From: an uncultured Desulfosarcina sp.
GTDB taxonomy: Bacteria; Desulfobacterota; Desulfobacteria; Desulfobacterales; Desulfosarcinaceae
Assembly: GCA_963674945.2 (NCBI GenBank)
Contig: CAXXWQ010000002.1
Location: forward strand, 352,001-416,000
Direction of reading: 5' to 3'
Length of the DNA: 64,000 bases
How positions within the stretch are numbered: the stretch's first letter is position 1; each line of letters opens with the position of its first letter. Below are positions 7,869-33,361 of the stretch, piece after piece. The translations under genes were made by a program, and so were the position numbers. The notes under the pieces were generated by a model. That model saw nothing but the letters and a program-made list of their open reading frames with translations, did no database searches and was not told the DNA's origin.

Positions 7869-8271
7869 AAACACAGTAAATGTAAATTTAGGTAATGGGT
7901 GATAGGCGATAGGTCAAAACGTAAAATTTACGGATCATCCCTTCTGTCTTATAGCTAACGGGCGATAGTCAATGGGTTATAGACAGGGAGCTTGGAGCGG
8001 GGAGTAGCAGAAAATTAGTTGATCGATGACGAGCGGTGCGCAGTGGGAGATAGGTGATAGCTCATAGCTGATAGATCATAGTTCAAAGGCAACACAATAT
8101 GAGTCATTACCTTTTACAGCGAGTCGAAGACAGACGGCAATCTTGTTGCTGTTTGATAGAAAAGAAGATTTATACGGTTGGTTCTGGCCAAAGATGGCTT
8201 GTAACCCACCAGGCGGAGCTATGTAGAAAAGGGATGAAGAGCAGGCTGTAGGCGGGGAGCGTAGAGGGGGC

Positions 8272-8350
8272 GAAAAGCGGAAGATCGGAAGAGCCGAAGA
8301 GAGAAAGTTGGGAAAATCGGAAAAGCGGAAGATTGAAAGAGCGGAAAACC
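8272..8350 (+). repeat. 8-nt-period tandem array (GAARAGCG-like), left arm of four-helix-bundle gene 1
   Basis: gaaaagcg gaagatcg gaagagcc gaagagag aaagttgg gaaaatcg gaaaagcg gaagattg aaagagcg. Confidence 0.8.
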
Positions 8351-8565
8351 ATTGGATAGAAAACGGGATATTAGACATTTCAGGGATTTGGACGTTTACC
8401 GATTGGCCTTTCAATGTGCCATGATAATATTTGAAATTACCAAGTCCTTTCCCGCTGAAGAGCGATATTCTATGATTGATCAAATCAGACGATCCTCAAG
8501 ATCTGTTTGCTCCAATCTGGCTGAAGGATGGCGAAAGAGAAAATATGAAGCTGTTTTTAGGAATA

Positions 8566-10221
8566 CCTGAATCAGTGGCCTAATTTTTGCTGTTAGGATT
8601 GGCGCGGGGCGATTGCCTCACACACCATCATTTGTTGATAATTTTTCTCACTATTTTCAAATTTCGAAGGAATTTTGCTCCTGTTTCTCATTCTTTAGCC
8701 ATAGCAAATCACCAAGCAAATGCCTGTAAAATTGTTCTTTTAAAAATTATAGCTACTTCATAGCGGAAAGCAAATTCAGACGAAGATAAATCCGATCCAT
8801 CAGTTTGGAAAATGGATTGAGTTGGCCAAAGGATATGTACCATTTTCTACTTCTGGTTACTAATCGACCGGCCATATACATCAAGTCCTGCATGACTGTC
8901 CGGATTCGACGCCGGGTAACTTTCTTCCGGCGTATACCGGGCAATTCAGTCGGATCACTCTCTTCGATGCTGATTTGTCCGATAATCCGTAGCATGTTGT
9001 ACGTCAGCATCGCCAAATGAAGAATCAAGCTATTGGTGGAAAAATGACCGCTCGGCAAGCGCTCCAGGCCCATGTCGGATTTGAGTTCGGAGTGAAACTG
9101 CTCGCTGGTACCGTGATCGTGATAAAGTCGAATCACCTCATCCGGTGGCAACTGTGCGAGGCTGCACCAATAGGTATCGATCTGATACTCGGGGAACAGC
9201 AGTACTTGGCCCTTTTTGGTATGCCTTTCGGTAACCTCAAAGATGATTGGGTAGCGCAATGGATTGCCGTTGATGTCTTCAATCGTCTTTCCGATCCATA
9301 CACATTTTCCTGAGCGGCAATGCTGTTGCTTGCCGGATTTTTTTGCCAGATCAACCCACTTTTGAACAGATTCTCTACGCAAATTGCGTTTGATGATAAA
9401 GTGGACATTCTTTCGTGAATCGTCAGGAAAGTTGTCTTGACTGTCGTTTCCTGAATCCAACCTCATCAAAATAGGCTGATCGGTAATTTGCCTGGCATAA
9501 TCCAAGGTGGCGTTGATAAATTCGGGGGTGTTTTTCTGGCAGTGTTGTTTTCCTTCTCTGAACTCAAGATTCACCAGATACCCCTCGGTGCCCAGGTAGG
9601 CAAAGATCGGAGCGAAGCCATCCGTGCCTTTGTAGGTTCTGGAAACGCCTTCCTTTTGAGTCTTTGAGTTGTCAAACGGACTCACATCCATATCCAAAGG
9701 AAGGAAATCACCCGCACTGGTTTGGATGGGTGAAATCGCCGGAGCGCAGGATCGAACCAAATCAACGCCTGCATCCTTAATCAGCTTATCGGCTTGGTTG
9801 CCGATCAAATCGATTCGCTGACGCAATGTCGGGCTTGACGGGCATGCACGATTGCCAATGGCCTTGTTGAAAAATTCTTGCTTCTCACGAAAAATCTCGA
9901 TCGCATCGTAATCAGGTTTACCAATACTCATGAGAGCAATCATCGAAGCTAAAATGTCACCATGAGAAATTTTCGGGTCTACACAATGGACGCCGTTGAT
10001 CTTTTCGAAACGGAACCTGAAATTTATCGCATCAAGTAATGCGCCGATATTGATCAATCCGCTATGACTGGCAAGTTTTTCCATCTCGTGTTTTATGGTG
10101 ATCGGACGCCGCATTGATTTCACCTCCGAAGTGAGCGTTTAGTGCCCTAATATTACCATAATATATATGTTTTATCAATTGGTTATAGTGTTTTAATCAG
10201 GTTTTGTGCCACGGAAACAGG
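8566..10221 (-). mobile_element. IS1380-family insertion sequence
   Basis: Imperfect IRs CCTGAATCAGTGGC / GCCACGGAAACAGG; 5-bp TSD GAATA at 8561-8565 and 10222-10226. Confidence 0.9.
8753..10123 (-). CDS. IS1380-family DDE transposase
   Basis: LDMDVSPFDNS, MRLDSGND, YHDHGTSEQFHSELKSD motifs. Confidence 0.92.
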   Translation of the reverse strand: MKSMRRPITIKHEMEKLASHSGLINIGALLDAINFRFRFEKINGVHCVDPKISHGDILASMIALMSIGKPDYDAIEIFREKQEFFNKAIGNRACPSSPTLRQRIDLIGNQADKLIKDAGVDLVRSCAPAISPIQTSAGDFLPLDMDVSPFDNSKTQKEGVSRTYKGTDGFAPIFAYLGTEGYLVNLEFREGKQHCQKNTPEFINATLDYARQITDQPILMRLDSGNDSQDNFPDDSRKNVHFIIKRNLRRESVQKWVDLAKKSGKQQHCRSGKCVWIGKTIEDINGNPLRYPIIFEVTERHTKKGQVLLFPEYQIDTYWCSLAQLPPDEVIRLYHDHGTSEQFHSELKSDMGLERLPSGHFSTNSLILHLAMLTYNMLRIIGQISIEESDPTELPGIRRKKVTRRRIRTVMQDLMYMAGRLVTRSRKWYISFGQLNPFSKLMDRIYLRLNLLSAMK

Positions 10222-10410
10222 GAATAAATTGACTGATTCCATGCAGGAGGCGTCTGAGACACAATGCTGGATCGAATTCGCACATGCCTGTTCCTACATA
10301 ACAGCATCTACTTTCAGTGAATTGGACAAGGAATACGAACGAATTATTGCGATGCTAAATGGCATTGAGAAGCAAGCCAAGAAGTTCTGTTATTAATCAC
10401 AGTGAAAATC

Positions 10411-10442
10411 GGCTTTTCGGCTCTTCCGAGCTTCTTATCTTC
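10411..10442 (-). repeat. 8-nt-period array, right (inverted) arm of four-helix-bundle gene 1
   Basis: ggcttttc ggctcttc cgagcttc ttatcttc, the reverse complement of the 8272-8350 units. Confidence 0.75.
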
Positions 10443-13290: not shown

Positions 13291-13680
13291 CTACTGCCAA
13301 GAATATAGTGACAGACCGGCAATATTTTGTAACAGTTCGAAATGATGGTCGAACGAAAAAAGTGTGCATTGGTGTTGGACAGCATTCTGAGCGATGATTA
13401 AATCGGGAACCCCGATTCCATTTATCCCGTTTTTCAAACATCTGTATTGCCAATGGACAAGTTGATGCCATTGGATGTTGATGTCAAGCCGATAGATGCT
13501 ATGTAACAACCCGATGAGTTTCCGTTGATTGCGGAGCCTTAGAAAAGGGACGAGTTCGGTAAGAATCATATCATTGATGGCAACAAGGTTTTCATCGATC
13601 AGAAAATTCAGCTGCGTGTCATCGCCATCACCCCTGAAATAGGCGATCCAAACTGAAGAATCGATAAGAACCGTCATCAT
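13291..13680 (-). CDS. vapC: PIN-domain toxin (VapC)
   Basis: VLIDSSVWI, TEL, PDLIIA, FSFDHHF. Confidence 0.88.
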   Translation of the reverse strand: MMTVLIDSSVWIAYFRGDGDDTQLNFLIDENLVAINDMILTELVPFLRLRNQRKLIGLLHSIYRLDINIQWHQLVHWQYRCLKNGINGIGVPDLIIAQNAVQHQCTLFSFDHHFELLQNIAGLSLYSWQ

Positions 13681-13871
13681 CGGCCCCGTAAATGATTCAG
13701 GTCAATCTCCAGATCTTTCAAACTACCTTTAAATTGTTTTAATTCAGCGATCTTGGTTTTGCGGATCAGTTCTTCCAACGCGACGATAATAACCTTGGTT
13801 TTTGTGTTAATGCGCGTTGCCTTCATTGCCTCGACCAAAAGATCGTTCGGTAAATCCAATGTCGTTCGCAT
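13677..13871 (-). CDS. vapB: VapB-family antitoxin
   Basis: MRTTLDLPNDLLVEAM..TKTKVI; overlaps the toxin start. Confidence 0.85.
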   Translation of the reverse strand: MRTTLDLPNDLLVEAMKATRINTKTKVIIVALEELIRKTKIAELKQFKGSLKDLEIDLNHLRGR

Positions 13872-14409: not shown

Positions 14410-16077
14410 ATGTTAATTCATCAATTCTTAGAAAAATCCGCCAAACGCTATCCCGACAAGGTGGCCGTCGTTCACGAGAAGACGCGTGCTACCTACAGGC
14501 ATATAAACGAGAATGCAGAAAGACTTGCATCCTTTCTGATCGGCCGGGGCGTTACAAAAGGCGACCGGGTCGTGATCCAGCTGGAAAACAGCGTCGAATA
14601 CATCGTCGCCTACTACGGCATCCTGAAGGCCGGCGCCGTCGCAGTTCCCCTGAGCACGGACCTGAAGCCGGAAGGTCTCAACCCCTTGCTGGCAGAACTC
14701 GGACCTTCGGCGATCATTTCTGCTGCCCGTTTTGAGAGACTGCTGCAGGCGTCGGACCTGACCGTTCCCAATCTGAACACCCTGATCATCCATAACCCAA
14801 AGTTAAGCTGGGACGATCAGCCAATCACCGTCATCGCCTTCCAAGCCGTTATTGATCCAATAACGCTTCATAGAAATAAGATTCCGGCTCCAGATCAAGG
14901 CGGAGCCGAGTTTCAACCCGCAGTAATACAAAAGTATGTCGAGGACTTGGAAGGAGGCTCCAACGCCGATATTGAGCTGGAAGCTGTTTCGGTTACTTCT
15001 TCAGATATGGCCAGTATAATCTACACCTCCGGTTCTACCGGCAAATCCAAGGGGGTCATGCTCACCCACGGCAACATCGTCGCCAATGCGAATTCCATCT
15101 GCCAATACCTGCAATTGAGGGAGAGCGATATCCAGATGGTGGTGCTGCCGTTTTTCTATGTGATGGGAAAATCGCTTCTCAACACCATCATCGCCATCGG
15201 CGGAACGCTGGTGATCAACAATACATTCGCATTCCCCGCATCGGTGATCAACCAGATGATCGAAGAACGGGTTACCCTCTTTTCCGGCGTTCCTTCTACC
15301 TATGCGTACCTGCTTCATCGGTCACCTTTGAAAAAGAGCAGAGAGAAGCTTACAGATCTGCGAATGGTCACCCAGGCAGGCGGACACATGGCCCATTCGT
15401 TAAAAAAGCAATTGCAGGCCGCGCTCCCCGAACATACCCGGATCTGCATCATGTACGGTGCCACCGAGGCTTCGGCCCGTTTGACCTATTTGGATCCGGA
15501 TCGTTTCGAAGAGAAGATTGATTCCATCGGCCGGGCCATTCCCGGCGTGACAATAACCATCCGCGATGCCAATGGAGAAATCGTGCAACAGGGGGGGAAA
15601 GGGGAGATCGTCGCCACCGGTCCGAACATCATGCGGGGGTATTGGCAAGATCCCGAAGGGACGAAGGCCGTCCTGGATCAACATGGTTATCACACCGGCG
15701 ATATGGGATGGCAGGATGAACAGGGATTTATTTTCGTCGAAGGTCGGAAAGACGACATGCTCAAGGTGGGCGGGCATCGAATCAATCCCCAGGAGATCGA
15801 AGATGCGGTCCTGGCGACGCAGCTGGTTGTGGAAGCGTCGGTGGTGGGCATACCGGATTCCCTTCTCGGTACCCGCATGGCCGCCCTGGTCGTTTTGCTA
15901 AACGGCGATGTCTCTATCACAACAATCATGGAAAAATGCGCTGGGACCCTGCCCAAATACAAACTGCCAAGTGAAATCAAGGTGGTTCGATCCTTGCCGA
16001 AAAACGCCAACGGTAAAGTCGACAAGAAGAGGTGTATGGAAATTCTCACCAAAGAGAATTTAGCGAATAGCTCATAG
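14410..16077 (+). CDS. AMP-forming acyl/aminoacyl ligase, EPS/exosortase-associated
   Basis: YTSGSTGKSKG, MYGATEA, HTGD, GRKDDMLK, PKNANGK. Confidence 0.9.
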   Translation: MLIHQFLEKSAKRYPDKVAVVHEKTRATYRHINENAERLASFLIGRGVTKGDRVVIQLENSVEYIVAYYGILKAGAVAVPLSTDLKPEGLNPLLAELGPSAIISAARFERLLQASDLTVPNLNTLIIHNPKLSWDDQPITVIAFQAVIDPITLHRNKIPAPDQGGAEFQPAVIQKYVEDLEGGSNADIELEAVSVTSSDMASIIYTSGSTGKSKGVMLTHGNIVANANSICQYLQLRESDIQMVVLPFFYVMGKSLLNTIIAIGGTLVINNTFAFPASVINQMIEERVTLFSGVPSTYAYLLHRSPLKKSREKLTDLRMVTQAGGHMAHSLKKQLQAALPEHTRICIMYGATEASARLTYLDPDRFEEKIDSIGRAIPGVTITIRDANGEIVQQGGKGEIVATGPNIMRGYWQDPEGTKAVLDQHGYHTGDMGWQDEQGFIFVEGRKDDMLKVGGHRINPQEIEDAVLATQLVVEASVVGIPDSLLGTRMAALVVLLNGDVSITTIMEKCAGTLPKYKLPSEIKVVRSLPKNANGKVDKKRCMEILTKENLANSS

Positions 16078-16249
16078 GGGGTAGCGTCTATGAAAGAAAA
16101 AACCTTCATATAAACTATTGACATTGCATAAGTTACAAGGAAATCAGCTATCAGCTGTCACGTCCGTGTGAGTCTGTGGCGAAATTTAGAATTCAAAACT
16201 CAAAATTAATAATTGCTGATTGATGGTGTGTCCGTAGCCAAAGATAAAA

Positions 16250-17107
16250 ATGCCCAAGACCAATATCACCAATTATCTAACCATCGACGTCGAGGATTAT
16301 TTTCAGGTATCGGCCTTTGAAAAGGCGATCGATCCAGCATCCTGGGATACGTATGAATCCAGAGTTGTCGATAACACAAAGTTATTGCTTGATATTTTAT
16401 GCGATCGAGGCGTGAACGCCACTTTTTTCATCGTGGGCTGGATCGCCGAACGCTATCCAAAGATGGTTCGCATGATATGCGACCAGGGCCATGAAATCGC
16501 CTGCCACAGCTATATGCATCGAAAGGTGTATGACCTGGGGCCGAAATCCTTTATGGCTGATACCATCCGGGCCAAATCGACCTTGGAGGATATTATCGGG
16601 GATCCCGTCATCGGGTATCGGGCACCGAGTTATTCCATCACCCGCAAATCGTTGTGGGCATTGGATATTTTGGCAGAATTGGGATTCGAATACGACTCCA
16701 GTATCTTTCCCACCTACCACGACAATTACGGCATTCCCGATGCGCCACGATTCGCCTATACCTTGCCGAAACAACAGATGACCGAGTATCCCATCTCCAC
16801 GTTACAATTTATGGGGAAAAACGTTCCCGTATCCGGCGGCGGCTATTTCCGGCTGTTTCCCTATGCAGTCACGAGAAAGGCCCTGAAACGGATCAATGAG
16901 AAGGAGAGACAACCATTCGTTTTCTATCTTCATCCCTGGGAGGTCGACCCCGATCAACCGCGCGTTCGAAATTCCAGTCCCCTGTCCCGTTTTCGACACT
17001 ACATTAACCTGAAGTCGACGCGAGACAAGTTCCAACGATTGTTGGATGATTTTTCATTTGGCCCTTTCAGGAAATTAGCCACAGACACACATAGAAGCAT
17101 CAGCTGA
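16250..17107 (+). CDS. XrtA-system polysaccharide deacetylase
   Basis: TIDVEDYFQV, HEIACHSYMH, GYRAPSYS, GGGYFRL, FYLHPWE. Confidence 0.92.
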   Translation: MPKTNITNYLTIDVEDYFQVSAFEKAIDPASWDTYESRVVDNTKLLLDILCDRGVNATFFIVGWIAERYPKMVRMICDQGHEIACHSYMHRKVYDLGPKSFMADTIRAKSTLEDIIGDPVIGYRAPSYSITRKSLWALDILAELGFEYDSSIFPTYHDNYGIPDAPRFAYTLPKQQMTEYPISTLQFMGKNVPVSGGGYFRLFPYAVTRKALKRINEKERQPFVFYLHPWEVDPDQPRVRNSSPLSRFRHYINLKSTRDKFQRLLDDFSFGPFRKLATDTHRSIS

Positions 17108-17140
17108 TAGCTCATAGCTGATAAGCTTATAGTGAATAGC
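17103..17140 (+). repeat. Heptamer array GCTSATA, left arm of four-helix-bundle gene 2
   Basis: gctgata gctcata gctgata a gcttata gtgaata gc. Confidence 0.8.
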
Positions 17141-17145
17141 AATAT

Positions 17146-17505
17146 ATGAAACTTTCTTTCGAAAATCTCAAAGTTTACCAAAAGGCTTTAGATTTTTCAG
17201 TAAGCGTCATAGATGCAATTGAGGAATTTGAAACACCACGAAAACATTATCGGCTGATAGAACAACTGGAGGCAGCATGCACGTCAATACCGATGAACAT
17301 TTCGGAGGGAAAGGGTCGTTACTCAAAGAAAGAATTCAAGCACTTTCTTTACATAGCCAGAGGCAGTCTTTATGAGACCGTTACGATGCTCCAAATATTC
17401 AGAAAAAAGGACTGGCCAAAAACCGAGAATTACAATTTATTATACCATGACGCAGAAGAAATAAATAAAATGTTATCCGGCCTGATCGCTACCATCAAAA
17501 CATGA
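17146..17505 (+). CDS. Four-helix-bundle protein (23S rRNA IVP/Avd-like)
   Basis: FENLKVYQKA, QLEAACTSIPMNISEGKGRYSKKEFKHFLYIARGSLYE. Confidence 0.92.
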   Translation: MKLSFENLKVYQKALDFSVSVIDAIEEFETPRKHYRLIEQLEAACTSIPMNISEGKGRYSKKEFKHFLYIARGSLYETVTMLQIFRKKDWPKTENYNLLYHDAEEINKMLSGLIATIKT

Positions 17506-17516
17506 TCTATTTTTTT

Positions 17517-17586
17517 TATCAGCTATCAGCTATCAGCTATCAGCTATCAGCTATCAGCTATCAGCTATGAGCTATGAGCTATGACC
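17517..17586 (-). repeat. Heptamer array, right arm of four-helix-bundle gene 2
   Basis: (TATCAGC)x7, (TATGAGC)x2, TATGACC; reverse complement of the left-arm units. Confidence 0.95.
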
Positions 17587-18927
17587 TATCACATCACCCA
17601 CCTGGGAGCAGAACACTGCGTTACCGGATCATGCCACCTGATCCGGGCCAACGGTCTGACCATCATGGTCGATTGCGGCGCGGCCCAGGGAAGCGATCCG
17701 GATACCCGGATGGACCAATGGCCCGTCAGGCCAAGCGAAATCGACTACCTTTTTTTGACCCACGCCCACATCGACCACATCGGGCGTGTACCGGAGCTGA
17801 TCCGGCATGGTTTCAACGGTGAGATCATCTGTTCCCATCCCACCCGGGCGCTGCTTTTTCCCATGCTGGCCGATGCCATGAAGTTCGCCGATATTTCGGA
17901 AAAGGCTGCCGCAAGCATGCAACAGACCCTCGACGATTTGTCATGGGGTTTCGAATACGAAGAACCCTTCGACCTGGAAAAGGGGATCTCGTTTCAGCTG
18001 AAACGGGCAGGACATATTCTGGGATCCACATTCATCCGCTTTCAGGACGACGCCACCGGGTGGTCGGTGATCTTCTCCGGCGATCTGGGCGCCACGGACA
18101 CTCCCATTTTGCCGGATCCCGATCCTCCCCAATGTGCCGACCTGGTGATCATGGAATCCACTTACGGGGATCGGTTCCATGACGACCGCAAAGAAAGGGT
18201 GCGACGCCTGGGGCAGGTGCTGGCCCATGCACTGGCCGACCGGGGAAAGGTGTTCATTCCGGCGTTTTCTTTGGGACGCGCCCAGGAATTGCTCTATGAA
18301 ATGGACCGCCTGTTTTCGGATCCGGATTACCGGAGTCTGTTTCCCGCGCTCCAGGGCCAGAAACGGCTGCCGGTGTTCGTCGACTCCCCCCTCGGCCTGG
18401 AGATCACCCGGATCTATGCCCGTCTTTCCGAATTCTGGGACAAGGACGCCAAGGATCTTCATCGTGCCGGCGACCATCCACTGGATTTCGAAGGTCTGTA
18501 TGCGGTAGAAAGCCATCGTGATCACCTGGCGCTGTGCGATGCAAACGGTCCGGCGGTCATTCTCGCCGGAAGCGGCATGTGCACCGGCGGAAGAATCCTC
18601 GATCATCTCAAAACGGGAATCGATGATCCTGCCAACGACGTTCTTTTCGTCGGCTACCAGGCCCATGGTACGCCCGGACGAACGATCCGGAATCATGCCG
18701 CCAAGCCTGGTGCGTTCGTCGAACTCGATGGCGCGCATTTTCCCATCAAGGCGCAGATTCATACCCTTTCCGGATATTCGGCCCACGCGGACCAGAAAGG
18801 CCTCATCCATTGGATTGCGTCCATGCCTGGAAAGCCGGGGGCCATCAAATTGGTGCATGGGGAAAAGCGGGCACGTGCGGTACTTGCCGAAGCGTTAACA
18901 AAACGGGGACATTCCATAGCGCCATGA
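17581..18927 (+). CDS. Metallo-beta-lactamase/beta-CASP ribonuclease
   Basis: VTGSCH, THAHIDHIG, AGHILGS, FSGDLG, MESTYG, SGYSAHAD, LVHGE. Confidence 0.92.
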   Translation: MTYHITHLGAEHCVTGSCHLIRANGLTIMVDCGAAQGSDPDTRMDQWPVRPSEIDYLFLTHAHIDHIGRVPELIRHGFNGEIICSHPTRALLFPMLADAMKFADISEKAAASMQQTLDDLSWGFEYEEPFDLEKGISFQLKRAGHILGSTFIRFQDDATGWSVIFSGDLGATDTPILPDPDPPQCADLVIMESTYGDRFHDDRKERVRRLGQVLAHALADRGKVFIPAFSLGRAQELLYEMDRLFSDPDYRSLFPALQGQKRLPVFVDSPLGLEITRIYARLSEFWDKDAKDLHRAGDHPLDFEGLYAVESHRDHLALCDANGPAVILAGSGMCTGGRILDHLKTGIDDPANDVLFVGYQAHGTPGRTIRNHAAKPGAFVELDGAHFPIKAQIHTLSGYSAHADQKGLIHWIASMPGKPGAIKLVHGEKRARAVLAEALTKRGHSIAP

Positions 18928-19187
18928 GGCTGGCGGATAAAAGTGATCAGTGATGGGTGATAGGAAAAGAGGCCGTAGGCGATAGGCTACAGGTTATCGG
19001 CGGACGGTAGCGTGGGCGACAAATGTTGAATTATGAATTGATAATGTTGAATTCAGAACTCAACATGAATAATTGCTGTTTGATGGTGTGTCCGTGGCTA
19101 AAATAAAAGAAACCTCTTTGCGGTCTTGGCGTCTTGAGCAAAGCCGGCGGTGAAAAGAGATGCTTCACAGAAGCCAAAAACGCCGCA

Positions 19188-19234
19188 TTGACATTGCCGT
19201 CAGTAAGATTTATAAATGGTCAAGATGACCATTT
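19188..19234 (+). promoter_or_regulatory. Sigma-70 promoter with overlapping palindromic operator for the Phd/VapC pair
   Basis: TTGACA (19188)-N17-TATAAA (19211); perfect IR AAATGGTCA-aga-TGACCATTT at 19214-19234. Confidence 0.7.
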
Positions 19235-19277
19235 TGACTATCTTTTAGTGATGAACCAGCAAAAAAGTCAGATTCAG

Positions 19278-19402
19278 GATGGCTTCGTAAGAAGTTCGAG
19301 ATCAAGGCTTGCGAGCCCGGAGGAATGAGGCGTATGGTTGGATACGTCGCAATGACGAGGGGTGAAGCGTAACGCAGATATCGGGCTTTTTACGAAGCCA
19401 TC
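19278..19402. repeat. 125-bp MITE-like element in the TA leader
   Basis: Terminal IRs GATGGCTTCGTAAGAAG / CTTTTTACGAAGCCATC. Confidence 0.75.
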
Positions 19403-19419
19403 AAATATGGAGGCACTAC

Positions 19420-19698
19420 ATGCCGACTATATCGGTAGCCGAGGCAAAAAGCCATTTATCGGAACTCTTGGCGAAGAGCGCTTACAATAATGAAAAGTTT
19501 ATCATTACACGTCGCAACAAACCGATCGCCGCACTGGTCAGCATAGATGATTTACGGAAAATCGAACAATACGAAGAAAGAAAAGGGCTTTCCGATCTGA
19601 TCGGAAAATGGAGCGGGTTCGAGGAAATTTCCGAATTTATCGATGATGTAAAGGCCATTCGAAAAAAGGGCGGTACGGGTAGGGATGTATCTTTTTGA
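19420..19698 (+). CDS. Phd/YefM-family antitoxin
   Basis: ISVAEAKSHLSELL..IITRRNKPIAALV. Confidence 0.9.
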   Translation: MPTISVAEAKSHLSELLAKSAYNNEKFIITRRNKPIAALVSIDDLRKIEQYEERKGLSDLIGKWSGFEEISEFIDDVKAIRKKGGTGRDVSF

Positions 19699-20101
19699 TA
19701 CAGACGTGATCAGCAATATTTTCAAGCCAAATCCATCTGAAGGGCTGCTCGTGAAGTTGGGCGGATTGGCCCAGACGGAGCAATTCATCTCAACGATTAC
19801 GATTTTCGAAATTGTTTATGGTGCAATAAAGAGCGGGCGTGCTGATTACCATTTGAATAATTTGAGAAACATTTTATTGCCCTCCGTCAATATCGTCGGA
19901 TTTGATACCAAAGCGGCTTTCGAATGTGGCCGCATTCGTGCCGAATTGGAAAATCAGGGGCGAAGGCTATCACTTGCGGATCTTCAGATCGCTTCCATTG
20001 CAATGGCCAACGAGTTGACACTGGTAACGGGAAATACAAAGCATTTTACGAGGGTCGATGGCCTGAAAGTTGAAAATTGGTTGCATCCCCTGAAAAAGTA
20101 G
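19685..20101 (+). CDS. vapC: VapC PIN toxin
   Basis: YLFDTDVIS, FEIVYG, ADLQIASIA, LVTGNTKHF. Confidence 0.9.
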   Translation: MYLFDTDVISNIFKPNPSEGLLVKLGGLAQTEQFISTITIFEIVYGAIKSGRADYHLNNLRNILLPSVNIVGFDTKAAFECGRIRAELENQGRRLSLADLQIASIAMANELTLVTGNTKHFTRVDGLKVENWLHPLKK

Positions 20102-20456
20102 ACACGGACCCACGCTGACACTCACAAAAAAATAAATCAGCCACGGACCCACACCGACAAAAAAGAAAAGATAATTCGCCACGGACCCACACGGACGCAC
20201 ACAGACAAAACAAGTAAATACTTGCCTTCGGCAAAAAACAGAGAAGTCCATAAAAACGCAGAAGTTGATCATTCGGTTTACGTTTTTCCAGCCAACGGCT
20301 GCATTTAACCTGTCCGTGTGCGTCCGTGTGTGTCCGTGGCAAAAAATCCAAGCCGCAGGCTGCAAAAAACCCGTCAGTGTGAGTCCGTGTGTGTCCGTGG
20401 CCAATTCCCAGCCGAAGGCTGCAAACATAACCCGTCCGTGTAAGTCCGTGGCAAAA
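20101..20456. repeat. Family-A element, copy 5
   Basis: Same arms and core; begins at the vapC stop. Confidence 0.9.
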
Positions 20457-20557
20457 CTTCGGCCCGAATCCGCTTATGCTCCAAGTGACACCCCATTGTC
20501 CCTGGCTTTATGGTACAATGGCTTTTTATCCTGTCTTACTATAATGGAGTAATATCA

Positions 20558-22204
20558 ATGCCTGAAATTCAGGAAAACATTTCGGTAAGCCCCGATGGTG
20601 AAGCTTTCCCATTACCAACGCCAGCTGACTACGAACAGGAGTCGGTCCGGCTTACCCGGCTCGTCGAACGTCACAAAAAAGAAGGGCGCGAAATCGTCGT
20701 GGTCCAGGGAGTCGGGTTCGTCGGCGCCGTGATGGCCGGCGTCGTCGCCGACTCGACGGACGAAACCGGCAAGCCGGGAAAGTTTGTCATGGGCATGCAG
20801 CGCCCGTCGACGCGATCCTACTGGAAGATTCCCTGCCTGAATCGGGGCGTGGCACCGGTGGAGGCGGAAGATCCGGATGTCGAACCGTTGATCCGGCGTT
20901 GTGTGCTCGAAAAACAGACCCTGACCGCCACCTTCAGCTACGATGCGCTGTCCATGGCCGATGTGGTGGTGGTGGATGTTCAGTGTGACTACCACAAGGA
21001 GACACTGGGCGAGGTGAGAAAAGGGCATGCCGCCATCGGTGCATTGGAGGAAAGCCTGGCCGTGATCGGCGAGAGGATCGATCCCCATTGCCTGGTATTG
21101 ATCGAAACCACGGTGCCGCCGGGAACCACCGAATACGTGGCCTATCCCATCCTGAAAAAGGCGTTCGAGAAACGGGGGCTCAAAGAGGCCGAACCACTGC
21201 TGGCCCATTCCTTCGAAAGAGTCATGCCGGGGCGCAACTATGTCGCCTCCATCAGGGATTTCTGGCGGGTGTGCAGCGGCATCAACCAGGTCGCCCGAGA
21301 CAAGGTGGTCAAGTTCCTGTCGGAAATCCTCAATGTCGACCAATACCCGTTGACCGTTCTGGACCGCCCCATCGAGAGCGAGACCTGCAAGATCGTGGAA
21401 AATTCCTATCGTGCCGCCACTTTGGCCTTTCTGGACGAATGGAGCGTTTTTGCCGAACGAAACGGCGTCGACATCACCAAGGTGGTGGAGGCCATCAAGA
21501 TCCGGCCGACCCACTCCAACCTGATCTTCCCAGGGCCGGGCATCGGCGGTTATTGCCTGCCCAAGGACGGCGGACTGGGCGTGTGGGCCTACCACACGCT
21601 CATGGGCTTCGACGACGACCTGTTCAAGATCACCCCTTTGTCCATCGATATCAATGACACGCGGGCCTTACGGCCTCCCCAGCTGGTGCGGGATGCACTT
21701 CGCAACATGGGAAAGATCGTACCCACCTCCAGGATTGCCGTGCTGGGCATCTCCTACCGCCAGGATGTGGGCGACACCCGCTATTCCGGATCGGAAATCA
21801 TCGTCCGCAAGCTTGCCGAAATGGGTGGGGAAGTCGTCGTCCACGACCCCTACGTCAAGCACTGGTGGGAGTTCGAAAAACAGGATACCTACCCGGCGCC
21901 GGGACACTCGTGGAAACGCTTTTTCAGAAACCAGGACCACCTCGTCGACTTGAGAGTCAAATCCGATCTGGCCGACGCCCTCGAAGGTGTGGACGCGGTG
22001 GTATTGGCCGTTCGGCACTCCGCGTACCTGAACCTCGCGCCGGACCAGGTGGTCGAAATGACCGGCCGGCCCGTGGCCGTCATCGACTGCTTCGGAATTC
22101 TCAGCGATGACCGGATCAGCCGCTATTTTGAGCTCGGCTGTGAAGTCAAGGGGCTCGGCCGGGGGCATGTAAAACGGCTCAAGGATCGGGTGCAAAAAAA
22201 GTGA
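20558..22204 (+). CDS. Nucleotide-sugar (UDP-glucose/GDP-mannose/UDP-ManNAc family) dehydrogenase
   Basis: GVGFVG, ETTVPPGTT, KIVENSYR, GPGIGGYCLPKD, DVGDTRYS. Confidence 0.9.
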   Translation: MPEIQENISVSPDGEAFPLPTPADYEQESVRLTRLVERHKKEGREIVVVQGVGFVGAVMAGVVADSTDETGKPGKFVMGMQRPSTRSYWKIPCLNRGVAPVEAEDPDVEPLIRRCVLEKQTLTATFSYDALSMADVVVVDVQCDYHKETLGEVRKGHAAIGALEESLAVIGERIDPHCLVLIETTVPPGTTEYVAYPILKKAFEKRGLKEAEPLLAHSFERVMPGRNYVASIRDFWRVCSGINQVARDKVVKFLSEILNVDQYPLTVLDRPIESETCKIVENSYRAATLAFLDEWSVFAERNGVDITKVVEAIKIRPTHSNLIFPGPGIGGYCLPKDGGLGVWAYHTLMGFDDDLFKITPLSIDINDTRALRPPQLVRDALRNMGKIVPTSRIAVLGISYRQDVGDTRYSGSEIIVRKLAEMGGEVVVHDPYVKHWWEFEKQDTYPAPGHSWKRFFRNQDHLVDLRVKSDLADALEGVDAVVLAVRHSAYLNLAPDQVVEMTGRPVAVIDCFGILSDDRISRYFELGCEVKGLGRGHVKRLKDRVQKK

Positions 22205-22479: not shown

Positions 22480-22755
22480 ATGGAAACTCAATATACCATA
22501 TCCGAAGCCAAGAACAAGTTGCCGTCGATCATACATTCGGTGGAAAAAGGACCATCTGTAAAATTGACGAGGCGTGGACGACCTGTTGCGATATTGTTGT
22601 CAATTAAGGAATACGAGAAATTAGTACGAAAAAATATCAGCTTCTGGAATGCTTTAACAAATTTTCGAAATAAGGCTGGGGAATTTGAAATTTCAGATGA
22701 AGATTTTGTGGGCCTCCGAGATCGTTCTTCCGGAAGGATAGTTGAATCGTTTTGA
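22480..22755 (+). CDS. Phd/YefM-family antitoxin
   Basis: TISEAKNKLPSII..LTRRGRPVAIL. Confidence 0.9.
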   Translation: METQYTISEAKNKLPSIIHSVEKGPSVKLTRRGRPVAILLSIKEYEKLVRKNISFWNALTNFRNKAGEFEISDEDFVGLRDRSSGRIVESF

Positions 22756-23174
22756 TGAAATATCTATTGGATACAAACGTTATATCGGAGGCAATCAAAA
22801 CGGTGCCCAATCAAAACGTAATGAATCAACTGCAGAAACATCAAGATGAAATTGCAACGGCTTCACTCGTTTGGCATGAACTCCAGTATGGCTGCAGACG
22901 TTTGCCCAATTCCCGAAAACGATCCCTTATCGAATCGTATCTTTCAGAGGTTGTGTGGCATACGATTGCGATACTCCCCTATGATGCGGCTGCTGCAGAC
23001 TGGCATGCCGAACAGCGAGCACAGTTGACCGCCGCCGGCAAGTCTCCCCCCTTCATTGACGGCCAAATTGCCGCCATCGCCAAGGTAAACAATCTGATTC
23101 TCGTGACCCGAAATATATCGGATTATATGTGCTTTCAGGGTGTAACGTTACGAAACTGGCACGTGCGGAATTAA
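22752..23174 (+). CDS. vapC: VapC PIN toxin
   Basis: YLLDTNVISE, HELQYG, DGQIAAIA, LVTRN. Confidence 0.9.
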   Translation: MMKYLLDTNVISEAIKTVPNQNVMNQLQKHQDEIATASLVWHELQYGCRRLPNSRKRSLIESYLSEVVWHTIAILPYDAAAADWHAEQRAQLTAAGKSPPFIDGQIAAIAKVNNLILVTRNISDYMCFQGVTLRNWHVRN

Positions 23175-24163: not shown

Positions 24164-24486
24164 AAAGATAATTAGCCACGGACCCACACGGACGCACACG
24201 GACAAAAGAGAAAAGATAAATCAGCCACAGACCCACACGGACCCACACAGACAAAACAAATAAATACTTGCCTTCGGCAAAAAACAGAGAAGCCCATAAA
24301 AACGCAGAAGTTGATCATTCGGTTTACGTTTTTCCAGCCAACGGCTGCATTTAGCTCGTCCGTGTGCGTTCGTGGCAAAATTCCCAGCCGCAGGCTGTAA
24401 AAAAAACCGTCCGTGTGCGTCCGTGTGCGTCCGTGGCCAATTCCCAGCCGCAGGCTGCAAAAACTTGTCCGTGTGATTCAGTGGTA
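24164..24486. repeat. Family-A element, copy 6 (upstream of GxxExxY)
   Basis: Same arms and core. Confidence 0.9.
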
Positions 24487-24496
24487 AAAATCAAAA

Positions 24497-24859
24497 ATGA
24501 AAGAAGATAAACTAACCTATGAAATAAACGGTGCTGTTTTCGAAGTAAACAAGGTGCTCGGCGCTGGTTTTCTTGAAAAGGTCTATGAAAATGCACTGAT
24601 AGAGGAACTCAAGGCGAGGGGAATTAAAGCAGAAAGCCAAGTTCCAATCAAAGTACAATACAAGGAAAAAATTGTCGGCGAATATTTTGCCGATATTTTA
24701 GTCGAAAATAAAATTATCCTTGAGATTAAAGCAGTAGAAAGATTGTCCGGTATCCACGAAGCCCAAATTTTGAACTACTTGAAAGCCACCGATTACAAAG
24801 TTGGTTTGCTGATTAATTTCACCTACCCAAAGGCTGAAATAAAACGATTTGTTGTTTAA
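24497..24859 (+). CDS. GxxExxY protein (PD-(D/E)XK nuclease-like fold)
   Basis: LGAGFLEKVYENAL; YFADILVENKIILEIKA; HEAQILNYLKAT..GLLINF. Confidence 0.93.
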   Translation: MKEDKLTYEINGAVFEVNKVLGAGFLEKVYENALIEELKARGIKAESQVPIKVQYKEKIVGEYFADILVENKIILEIKAVERLSGIHEAQILNYLKATDYKVGLLINFTYPKAEIKRFVV

Positions 24860-25166
24860 TTCGCCACGGACCCACACAGACCCACACAGACAAAAAAAGA
24901 AAAGCGAATTGGCCACGGACGCACACGGACGCACACAGACAAAAAAGAAAAGATAAATTGGCCACGGACCCACACGGATGCACACGGACAAAAAAAGAAA
25001 AGATAAATCAGCCACAGACCCACACGGACCCACACAGACAAAACAAGTAAATACTTGCCTTCGGCAAAAAACAGAGAAGCCCATAAAAACGCAGAAGTTG
25101 ATCATTCGGTTTACGTTTTTCCAGCCAACGGCTGCATTTAGTTCGTCCGTGTGCGTCCGTGGCAAA
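24858..25166. repeat. Family-A element, copy 7 (downstream of GxxExxY)
   Basis: Four left units starting at the GxxExxY TAA, core, one right unit. Confidence 0.9.
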
Positions 25167-31636: not shown

Positions 31637-31743
31637 GGGCAGGTATAAGGCAGACGGTATGAGCAATAAGAAAAAAACTAATTTATACAGCTGTTTAGGG
31701 GTTCTGGTGTTTTGGGTTCAGGTGTTAATGAAACTGGATTGCA

Positions 31744-32133
31744 ATGGCTATAAACCGATTTGAGGATATTGAGGCATGGCAGCGATCAAGAATCCTTGCT
31801 CGCAAGGTTTATAGTTTAACTAATAATGCCAGTTTTTCTCGTGATTTTGGTTTGAAGGGACAGATTCAAAATGCAGCTGGTTCAACCATGCACAATATTG
31901 CGGAAGGATTTGATTCTGAATCAAACTTTGAATTTGTTCGATTCCTCCGTTACGCTAAACGATCTTGCACTGAAGTTCAAAGCCAGCTTTATATGGCATT
32001 AGACCAAAAATATATAACGAATGAAGAATTTCAGGATGTTTATGACCATGCCGGACGAACACGAGCAACTATTCGTGGCTTCATTAAGTACTTGATTGAC
32101 TATGAACAAAAACAAAAGAATAAGAAACGCTGA
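31744..32133 (+). CDS. Four-helix-bundle protein (23S rRNA IVP/Avd-like)
   Basis: FEDIEAWQ, DFGLKGQIQNAAGSTMHNIAEGFD..EFVRFLRYAKRSCTEVQSQLY; flanked by GTTCAGG-like and CCTGAAC-like arrays. Confidence 0.92.
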   Translation: MAINRFEDIEAWQRSRILARKVYSLTNNASFSRDFGLKGQIQNAAGSTMHNIAEGFDSESNFEFVRFLRYAKRSCTEVQSQLYMALDQKYITNEEFQDVYDHAGRTRATIRGFIKYLIDYEQKQKNKKR

Positions 32134-32182
32134 ACTTCCAATCCATTATCTTGAATAGCCCTGAACGGTGAACTCATAACCT

Positions 32183-33361
32183 GTGAACGTCAATAATTTC
32201 CTAAGAAATTTTTATTGGTACCCTCCAGCAGAGACAAAAATACCCTGGTCGGCAATTTTTTCGGCCTTTGGCAAACAACCAACCGATTTCAAATCCGTTT
32301 TATGCAACTACTTGGGTATCAAAAATTGCGTTCTCGCCGAAAGTGCAAGAGCTCTATTATTCAAATTGCTGAAAGTCTTAAAACAAAAAGACAACGGTCA
32401 GCGTAACGAAGTACTAATCCCTGGCTACACATGTTATTCGGTTGCTGCGGCTGTTGCCAGGGCGAATTTACAAATCAGCGTATATGACATTGACCCAGCA
32501 ACCTTATTGCCAGACACGGATTCAGTAAGAAAGGCAATTTCAGAAAATACACTTGCAGTTGTTGCGCAGCACTTATTTGGATTTCTCACACCGCTTGATG
32601 AGATTAAGAAGACAGCAAGTAATAATGGTGCCTATCTAATTGAAGATTCAGCGCAGGCAATGGGCTCTGTAAAGAACATCCCGAAGCCCGGGACCATAGG
32701 TGATTTCGGCCTTTTCAGCTTTGGTCGTGGCAAGCCGTTGCCAGTTGGTGGTGGTGGCGCTTTGGTTTCCGCAGATCATTTTGATGTTTTTGATACAATC
32801 AAATTCGGATCAAAAAAAAAGGGATACAAGCAGGCGTTAGAATCAGCTTTCGTACAGGTGGTTTCTAAACCGTATCTTTACTGGATACCGGAGATGTTAC
32901 CACTTGGACTTGGTGAGACGGTGTTTGATCCTGAGTTTGAAGTTGAAGAATTGTCGGAATCAGTTGAAACATTGCTTTGCAATGCCTTACCAACCCTTGA
33001 TCGTTTGAATGAACACAGAACATATATGGCCGATGTGTATGCGGCGAATATCAATGACCACCTATTAATTAAACAGCCTAAACATGCGTCTTCGATTATC
33101 CGTTTTCCGGTAGTTCTACCTAAGACAATTCTCAAAAAAGACCTTAAGCGTTTTGGCGTGCGGCGAATGTATCCCAAGGCGATCATTGATGCAGTAGAGA
33201 TAAAACCGTTCTTAAAGGAAAACCAAAAACCAACTCCTGGTGCTATTGAAATAGCTAATCGTCTTATCACTCTACCAACACATATGGGAATTAGCGATTC
33301 GACGGCCAAGGACATTTCTATTTTAGTGCAAAAAACAGTCAGACAGGATCTACAAGATTAA
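32183..33361 (+). CDS. DegT/DnrJ/EryC1/StrS-family PLP aminotransferase
   Basis: IPGYTC, IEDSAQA, FSFGRGKPL..GGG, TLPTH. Confidence 0.85.
   Translation: MNVNNFLRNFYWYPPAETKIPWSAIFSAFGKQPTDFKSVLCNYLGIKNCVLAESARALLFKLLKVLKQKDNGQRNEVLIPGYTCYSVAAAVARANLQISVYDIDPATLLPDTDSVRKAISENTLAVVAQHLFGFLTPLDEIKKTASNNGAYLIEDSAQAMGSVKNIPKPGTIGDFGLFSFGRGKPLPVGGGGALVSADHFDVFDTIKFGSKKKGYKQALESAFVQVVSKPYLYWIPEMLPLGLGETVFDPEFEVEELSESVETLLCNALPTLDRLNEHRTYMADVYAANINDHLLIKQPKHASSIIRFPVVLPKTILKKDLKRFGVRRMYPKAIIDAVEIKPFLKENQKPTPGAIEIANRLITLPTHMGISDSTAKDISILVQKTVRQDLQD

Follow-up and report, generated by a model that had tools for sequence, protein, structure and literature searches.

The intervening sequence (IVS) in helix 45 of the Coxiella 23S rRNA contains an S23p open reading frame (ORF), a 28-bp stem and tandem heptamers upstream of the ORF. 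RNase III cuts it at the first heptamer repeat, and the same account mentions an earlier proposal of a role for the ORF in mobility (PMC4990558). The DGR protein Avd is a pentamer that binds RNA and assists a reverse transcriptase (PMC6182149, 10.1101/2023.10.23.563531), with all five protomers contacting an RNA stem-loop (10.1101/2023.10.23.563531), and its likeness to PF05635 proteins has been noted (PMC10053308). REPIN-RAYT systems (PMC3116915, PMC3337134) consist of short intergenic elements with inverted arms, many of them gene-less copies, and one cognate gene encoding a tyrosine transposase. Intergenic heptamer arrays are described as GGGAATC in Xanthomonas and GGGGA(C/T)T in Nostoc (PMC4692102), and as TAACTGA in Beggiatoaceae (PMC4679880); they often form convergent pairs (70-75 cases in Xanthomonas) or adjoin start codons (PMC4692102, PMC4679880). 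The main texts of these two papers interpret the heptamers as G-quadruplexes or regulator sites, name no cognate gene and contain neither of the terms 'S23' and 'helix bundle', a point on which their supplements could bear. No published account of a gene-plus-heptamer cassette outside rRNA was found in the literature covered, the main texts of mostly non-subscription papers.

The window analysed here is a stretch of 64,000 nucleotides from an uncultured Desulfosarcina sp. (assembly GCA_963674945.2, contig CAXXWQ010000002.1, positions 352,001 to 416,000 of the forward strand), and the locus of interest in it is an exopolysaccharide cluster. As in the 23S rRNA IVS, terminal inverted repeats form a stem whose loop contains an ORF of the PF05635 family; unlike the IVS, the cassette of the window sits between protein genes and not inside 23S rRNA. 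The interval 15500-20600 has no rRNA match, and Rfam gave only two weak, sub-threshold matches. The left arm (17102..17140, + strand) comprises about five heptamer units, three of them good (GCTGATA/GCTCATA) and the two inner ones degenerate. The right arm (17517..17591, +), preceded by a T8 run, reads (TATCAGC)7(TATGAGC)2 followed by TATGACC and TATCAC, and Tandem Repeats Finder reports its array as 10.7 copies at 95%. The only ORF of family size between the arms is a four-helix-bundle gene of 119 aa (17146..17505, +), identified from the ORF list and from matches to the PF05635 and TIGR02436 profiles, for which no Shine-Dalgarno sequence is evident by eye. In a repeat scan of 16500-18200, the top inverted pair at the cassette has arms of 23 nt that are 96% complementary and 391 nt apart, and the same scan contains no long repeat pair of the template/variable type. 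The first-pass annotation had described a lone 119-aa gene enclosed by inverted heptamer arrays, and the sequence, repeat scan, ORFs and profile matches confirm that this observation is real.

Both neighbours reach into the arms. The upstream host gene, an XrtA-system polysaccharide deacetylase (profile match, TIGR03006; 16250..17107, +), has its stop TGA (17105-17107) within the left arm. The ATG (17581) of the downstream host gene, which encodes a beta-CASP metallo-beta-lactamase-fold protein (profile match; 17581..18927, +), falls in the last unit of the right arm, and the arm encodes the first codons of that gene. The window query finds the beta-CASP gene in 13 of 31 genus genomes, where its neighbours vary and repeat arms often supply its start. 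The cassette folds with a z-score of -4.9 on the sense strand and -3.6 on the antisense strand, and none of 100 shuffles is as stable on either. Short-read contigs agree with the window at 15800-17546 and 17553-19310 with zero differences; their breaks fall inside the right array, the unit count of which comes from the assembly alone. Contig depth is raised over 16891-17507 in run X3. The contigs of four runs hold no clean joint spanning the cassette, the skips present being short-sided or repeat-derived.

Several elements are stacked at the window site. The left arm is directly preceded by the remnant of a decamer-type arm (CCACAGAC/CACGGAC; 17073..17099, +; seen in the sequence and in a tandem repeat scan). 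This remnant, absent from the first-pass annotation, codes for most of the extra C-terminal residues of the deacetylase, and this composite junction is also present in the relative G009. Further upstream is a gene-less arm pair (16063..16161, +) with the word family of the main cassette, its left arm holding the stop TAG (16075-16077) of an AMP-binding-enzyme gene. A second cassette (31697..32190, +, limits set by eye) has an intact PF05635 gene (31744-32133) and an arm word of the GGTTCAG/TGAAC type. The third (8271..10440, +, right end set by eye) has octamer arms and a PF05635 gene split into two parts (8382-8561 and 10214-10363) by an insertion with a DDE_Tnp_1_4 transposase (8753-10123, minus strand).

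Other small genes accompany repeats in the same region. A GxxExxY / PD-(D/E)xK gene (24497-24859), the genome's only PF13366 match, lies inside inverted decamer arrays spanning 24358-25039, which are of the TCCGTG type on the 5' side and the CACGGA type on the 3' side. Gene-less decamer elements occupy many gaps of the window locus, and in relatives (L073, L075) this gene, again with decamer arms, adjoins the beta-CASP gene. The GxxExxY nuclease and its decamer arms are possibly a parallel class. Three PIN-toxin/antitoxin pairs are interspersed among the repeat elements (13291-13871, 19420-20101 and 22480-23174), and in relatives the adjacent junctions hold different small pairs of the toxin-antitoxin-like kind. 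A repeat of ∼120 nt with very high contig depth (19277-19399), just 5' of a toxin-antitoxin pair, is probably a high-copy miniature element.

The 119-aa protein matches PF05635 with E=5e-31 (107.5 bits, cut-off 33.8) and TIGR02436 with E=1e-31 (109 bits, cut-off 24). The predicted model consists of four long helices (pLDDT 95.9) and finds its best fold match in XCC0516 (Z 19.6, rmsd 1.3, 29% identity), followed by BT_0352 (Z 15.7) and Avd (Z 14.5-14.7, rmsd ∼2 Å, 11-12% identity); the entries below these three stand at Z 11.8. XCC0516 and BT_0352 are uncharacterised proteins, no catalytic fold is known for the window protein, and HEPN-type nucleases are absent from the best 50. The solved relatives 2GSC and 2RLD have five chains each, and by analogy the protein would be a homopentamer. 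In an alignment of 103 sequences S47 is invariant and Q40, N51, E54, G55, S74 and E77 are nearly so. The median dN/dS of 0.09 (30 of 47 close pairs, those with finite dS only) points to purifying selection on the PF05635 gene.

The arrangement extends well beyond the window. Family ORFs were pooled from the source genome, from a part of the genus and from 57 public loci; 148 were found and 129 kept, the other 19 being left out as fragments or for short flanks or runs of N. With an arm filter relaxed from a stricter first version, an inverted tandem arm pair flanks 80 of the 129 full-length genes, and its period is 7 in 67. Same-orientation pairs were counted at 15/129 and mismatched pairs at 23/300. 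The comparison with control genes, proposed in the first-pass annotation, revealed an enrichment: in the source genome the filter is passed by 31 of 1059 small ORFs and by 16 of 600 ORFs taken at random, nearly all with weak 6-mers, and among the 31 a period of at least 7 is found in only three, two of which are family genes. By local alignment, 104 of the 129 score above the 95th percentile for mismatched pairs. The strict arm test is failed by 49 of the 129, in part because start codons were often picked too far upstream; several genes, among them one subgroup (L090, L093-L096 and L098 are examples), lack a downstream arm by eye. The source genome alone has ten PF05635 matches, most of them flanked by inverted arrays with units of 7 or 8 bases, which use several different words.

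The median stem of the arms is 31 nt long. This equals 4-5 units and would fit a ring of five, though it is suggestive only. Variant units are mirrored in register between the two arms (score 1665, against 1652 for the best of 100 shuffles). Upstream stops could be scored at 49 of 58 dereplicated loci: in 36/49 the stop is found between -30 and +20 nt from the outer end of the left arm, in 14/49 it is inside the arm, and the downstream ATG lies inside the right arm in 5/44. The cassette therefore abuts stop codons, and its arms often, not usually, replace them. The earlier claim that the arms supply the stop of one neighbour and the start of the other is accurate for the window locus but not a rule for the family.

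The arm word tracks the protein. Across the 85 arm-bearing loci, median arm similarity is 0.62-0.80 between genomes at a protein identity of at least 60%, and 0.01-0.03 within one genome at a protein identity below 50%. Arm and protein similarity correlate with a Mantel r of 0.67 (0/999 permutations); since a single genus supplies 57 of the 85 loci, the counts lack independence, and the correlation shows joint inheritance and is not proof of co-evolved binding. The three nearest relatives of the window gene (65-73%, one of them a Myxococcota record) share its arm word. These comparisons show that the arms belong to the gene lineage or cassette and not to the host genome.

Orthologous junctions, two of them in other phyla, show how quickly such cassettes turn over. 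At a Nonlabens junction, for which 30 of 37 matching genomes were compared, there are 16 cassettes of three arm words, one bare TAATG overlap and 13 other spacers or genes. The cassette proteins are 39-100% identical and the neighbour gene 87-100%; two cassettes have nested or chimeric ends. The state of the junction changes 11 times on the neighbour-gene tree, in some cases between well-supported sisters. Set against the bare locus L197, which is from a different species, L206 and L209 read TA[G...C]ATG with no duplication, and a TA target duplication is not supported by this comparison. At an Acidobacteriota junction (30 of 48 matching genomes compared) there are two cassettes, three bare TAATG overlaps, two short spacers and 23 gene-less hairpins, most of which appear by eye to be heptamer runs of many words; the evidence for target duplication at these junctions is mixed. 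On the 5' side of the orthologue of the window's beta-CASP gene, the junction is a bare ATGA overlap in G041 and holds an unrelated cassette in G009, the arms of which are 9-mers. The deacetylase has three orthologues in the genus (70-72%), which adjoin different neighbours or a stack of gene-less elements. The search for empty orthologous sites, also proposed earlier, thus succeeded in part: bare TAATG or ATGA overlaps exist at three junctions, but an exact empty allele of the window site was not found among the relatives examined. The junctions show that cassettes are gained, lost, nested and replaced at single sites.

The source genome also holds many reduced copies. One arm family consists of 53 elements, among them a gene-bearing copy with a core of 457 nt, deletion forms and 46 short cores of less than 100 nt; conserved flanking sequence blurs the boundaries from which its ends and target duplication would be read. 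The gene-less cores keep the subterminal motifs of the gene-bearing copy, and the series shows short gene-less copies with the same ends arising by internal deletion. A few gene-less copies bear the word family of the window cassette itself, and of the PF05635 copies in the source genome, about half are truncated, frameshifted or split. Relative to host genes, 21 short copies are reversed and 6 forward, and the gaps that they occupy are convergent in 15 cases and divergent in 4. Where a copy bears the gene, it points the same way as the upstream gene in 45 of 53 such cases, which is what borrowing of the host transcript would predict.

The gene-less elements show some further peculiarities. 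An element of ∼70 nt lies inside an arm of several of them (G000 C1:8805-8980, C2:182515-182686 and C4:2247710-2247885), which suggests one element targeting another. Perfect arrays of ∼27-40 units, always right arms (G000 C2:446182-446396, C2:621061-621249 and C2:632045-632329), are either real expansions or long-read assembly artefacts. The element at G000 C2:639707-640233 and its gene-less family have a subterminal CUUCGG-type tetraloop and a GCGAAGC-type mini-hairpin, both of which are unusually stable structures.

In several respects the cassette resembles known mobile elements, and it behaves like an autonomous/non-autonomous pair. It shares with REPIN-RAYT the short intergenic elements with inverted arms, the many gene-less copies and the single cognate gene (PMC3116915, PMC3337134). 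Here, however, the cognate gene encodes a four-helix bundle in place of a tyrosine transposase, the arms consist of tandem heptamers, and the gene lies inside the element and is itself turning over. By eye, no heptamer arms occur within 500 nt on each side of the source genome's two Y1-transposase (PF01797) matches. Terminal inverted repeats are also the hallmark of TIR transposons and MITEs, but the only ORF of the cassette is PF05635 and not a known transposase. The fold is shared with the DGR protein Avd (PDB 4DWL, 8UB7), a pentamer that binds structured nucleic acid; unlike a DGR, the cassette has no adjacent reverse transcriptase, and the window protein is much nearer to XCC0516 than to Avd. 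The three reverse-transcriptase matches of the source genome are partial and lie on other contigs, with PF00078 found only on C3 and C4. In contrast with the 23S rRNA IVS, the cassette class has many arm words, dispersed gene-less copies and fast turnover. The cassette is a variant of the ORF-bearing IVS design.

Gene and arms together probably form a mobile cassette. The first-pass annotation had left two options, an mRNA intervening sequence that is looped out or excised and a minimal mobile cassette. The latter is supported by the family-wide arms, the arms tracking the protein, presence, absence and replacement at single junctions, and the gene-less derivatives. The former gained no support from the strand-symmetric mismatches or from gene-less copies in both orientations. 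The preferred reading, with a probability of slightly more than one half, is a widespread four-helix-bundle cassette: a selfish element, which likely moves as DNA and whose protein is predicted to recognise its own arm word. The cassette gene would lack a promoter of its own and be transcribed from the host operon, and its product would assemble into a ring of five, as in the solved relatives, that binds the periodic arms. The protein, or a host enzyme that it recruits, may then copy full and gene-less elements to sites just behind stops. A 7-base period brings a stop- or ATG-bearing word into all three frames within three units, and insertions would survive since 7-base arrays leave the neighbours an end and a start. 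Any cutting of the transcript stem by RNase III would be a side effect, and a 23S rRNA IVS would be a cassette of this kind that landed in rRNA.

Whether the arms act as DNA or as RNA can be approached through their mismatches: if the stem were kept for mRNA pairing, G.U-type mismatches should exceed A.C-type ones. The counts are 95 G.U against 98 A.C at the 85 arm-bearing loci and 69 against 66 at the 58 dereplicated ones. In 23 gene-less hairpins they are 20 against 15, compared with 9 against 1 in a terminator-like control from the source genome, and the test is blunted by the ambiguous register of tandem arrays, by neutral decay and by the size of this positive control (14 hairpins). The sense strand is the stabler one in 13 of the 23 gene-less hairpins. 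A test of G/C polarity relative to transcription was dropped, polarity being identical on both strands of an inverted element. Mismatch symmetry and copy orientation weigh against a selected mRNA intervening sequence. They bear less strongly on an RNA intermediate, because the arms may decay neutrally and the register of tandem arrays is ambiguous.

An RNA route of mobility is unlikely but has several points in its favour. An Avd-like ring seated on the arm stem of the transcript would recruit a distant reverse transcriptase, and the resulting copy would be inserted behind a stop. Such a route is consistent with the fold match to Avd, with the contact of all five Avd protomers with an RNA stem-loop (10.1101/2023.10.23.563531), with the apparent lack of a target duplication at the Nonlabens junction and with the landing of the family in 23S rRNA (PMC4990558). 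The co-orientation of gene-bearing copies with their operons (45/53) fits it as well. The lack of a G.U bias speaks against it, as do the short copies, mostly reversed relative to host transcription, and the three reverse-transcriptase matches, partial and on contigs other than that of the window.

A function for the host at the RNA level is improbable. On this view RNase III would cut the unit as an mRNA intervening sequence, or its stem would join stop to start, and expression of the polysaccharide operon would be tuned. The stable sense-strand fold (z -4.9), the position of upstream stops at the outer end of the left arm (36/49), the presence of a cassette or hairpin in 25 of 30 genomes at the Acidobacteriota junction and the RNase III cut at the first heptamer of the Coxiella IVS (PMC4990558) would all suit such a role. 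Yet the mismatches are strand-symmetric, the sense strand is hardly favoured in the gene-less hairpins (13/23), and the antisense strand of the cassette also folds. Bare TAATG or ATGA overlaps occur at all three junctions examined, and fast swapping of arm words and genes is unexpected for a tuned host signal.

That the arrays are simple repeats made by the host through slippage and quasi-palindrome copying in variable operons, with the gene as a frequent passenger, is very improbable: the locus is full of periodic hairpins, toxin-antitoxin pairs and the PD-(D/E)xK gene, and some long perfect arrays, of 30-40 units, resemble slippage products, but heptamer arms are almost never found at control genes, gene-less copies retain the subterminal motifs of the gene-bearing copy, and this reading is largely refuted by the arm words, which go with the protein from genome to genome and are diverse inside a single genome.

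The preferred reading, a selfish cassette moved at the DNA level, can be carried a step further, though only tentatively and at less than even odds. PF05635 bundles may be the mobility proteins of an undescribed transposase-free class, in which each pentamer reads its own 7-base word, with roughly one unit for each subunit, and distributes full as well as gene-less hairpins among stop/start junctions. Such a class would be the source of the heptamer excess and of the ORF-bearing 23S IVSs, and a relative of the DGR Avd. If so, Q40, S47, N51, E54, S74 and E77 would mark a new active or binding site, and the GxxExxY nucleases, with their decamer arms, would form a class in parallel. The elements rewrite the ends and starts of genes, as they do for both neighbours at the window locus, and so mislead annotation. 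Because each protein subfamily is paired with a 7-base word of its own, the question can be tested directly. If the reading is true, it would tie together the excess of heptamer repeats in bacteria, the origin of ORF-bearing rRNA IVSs and the kinship with the DGR Avd, and a large orphan protein family would gain a job.
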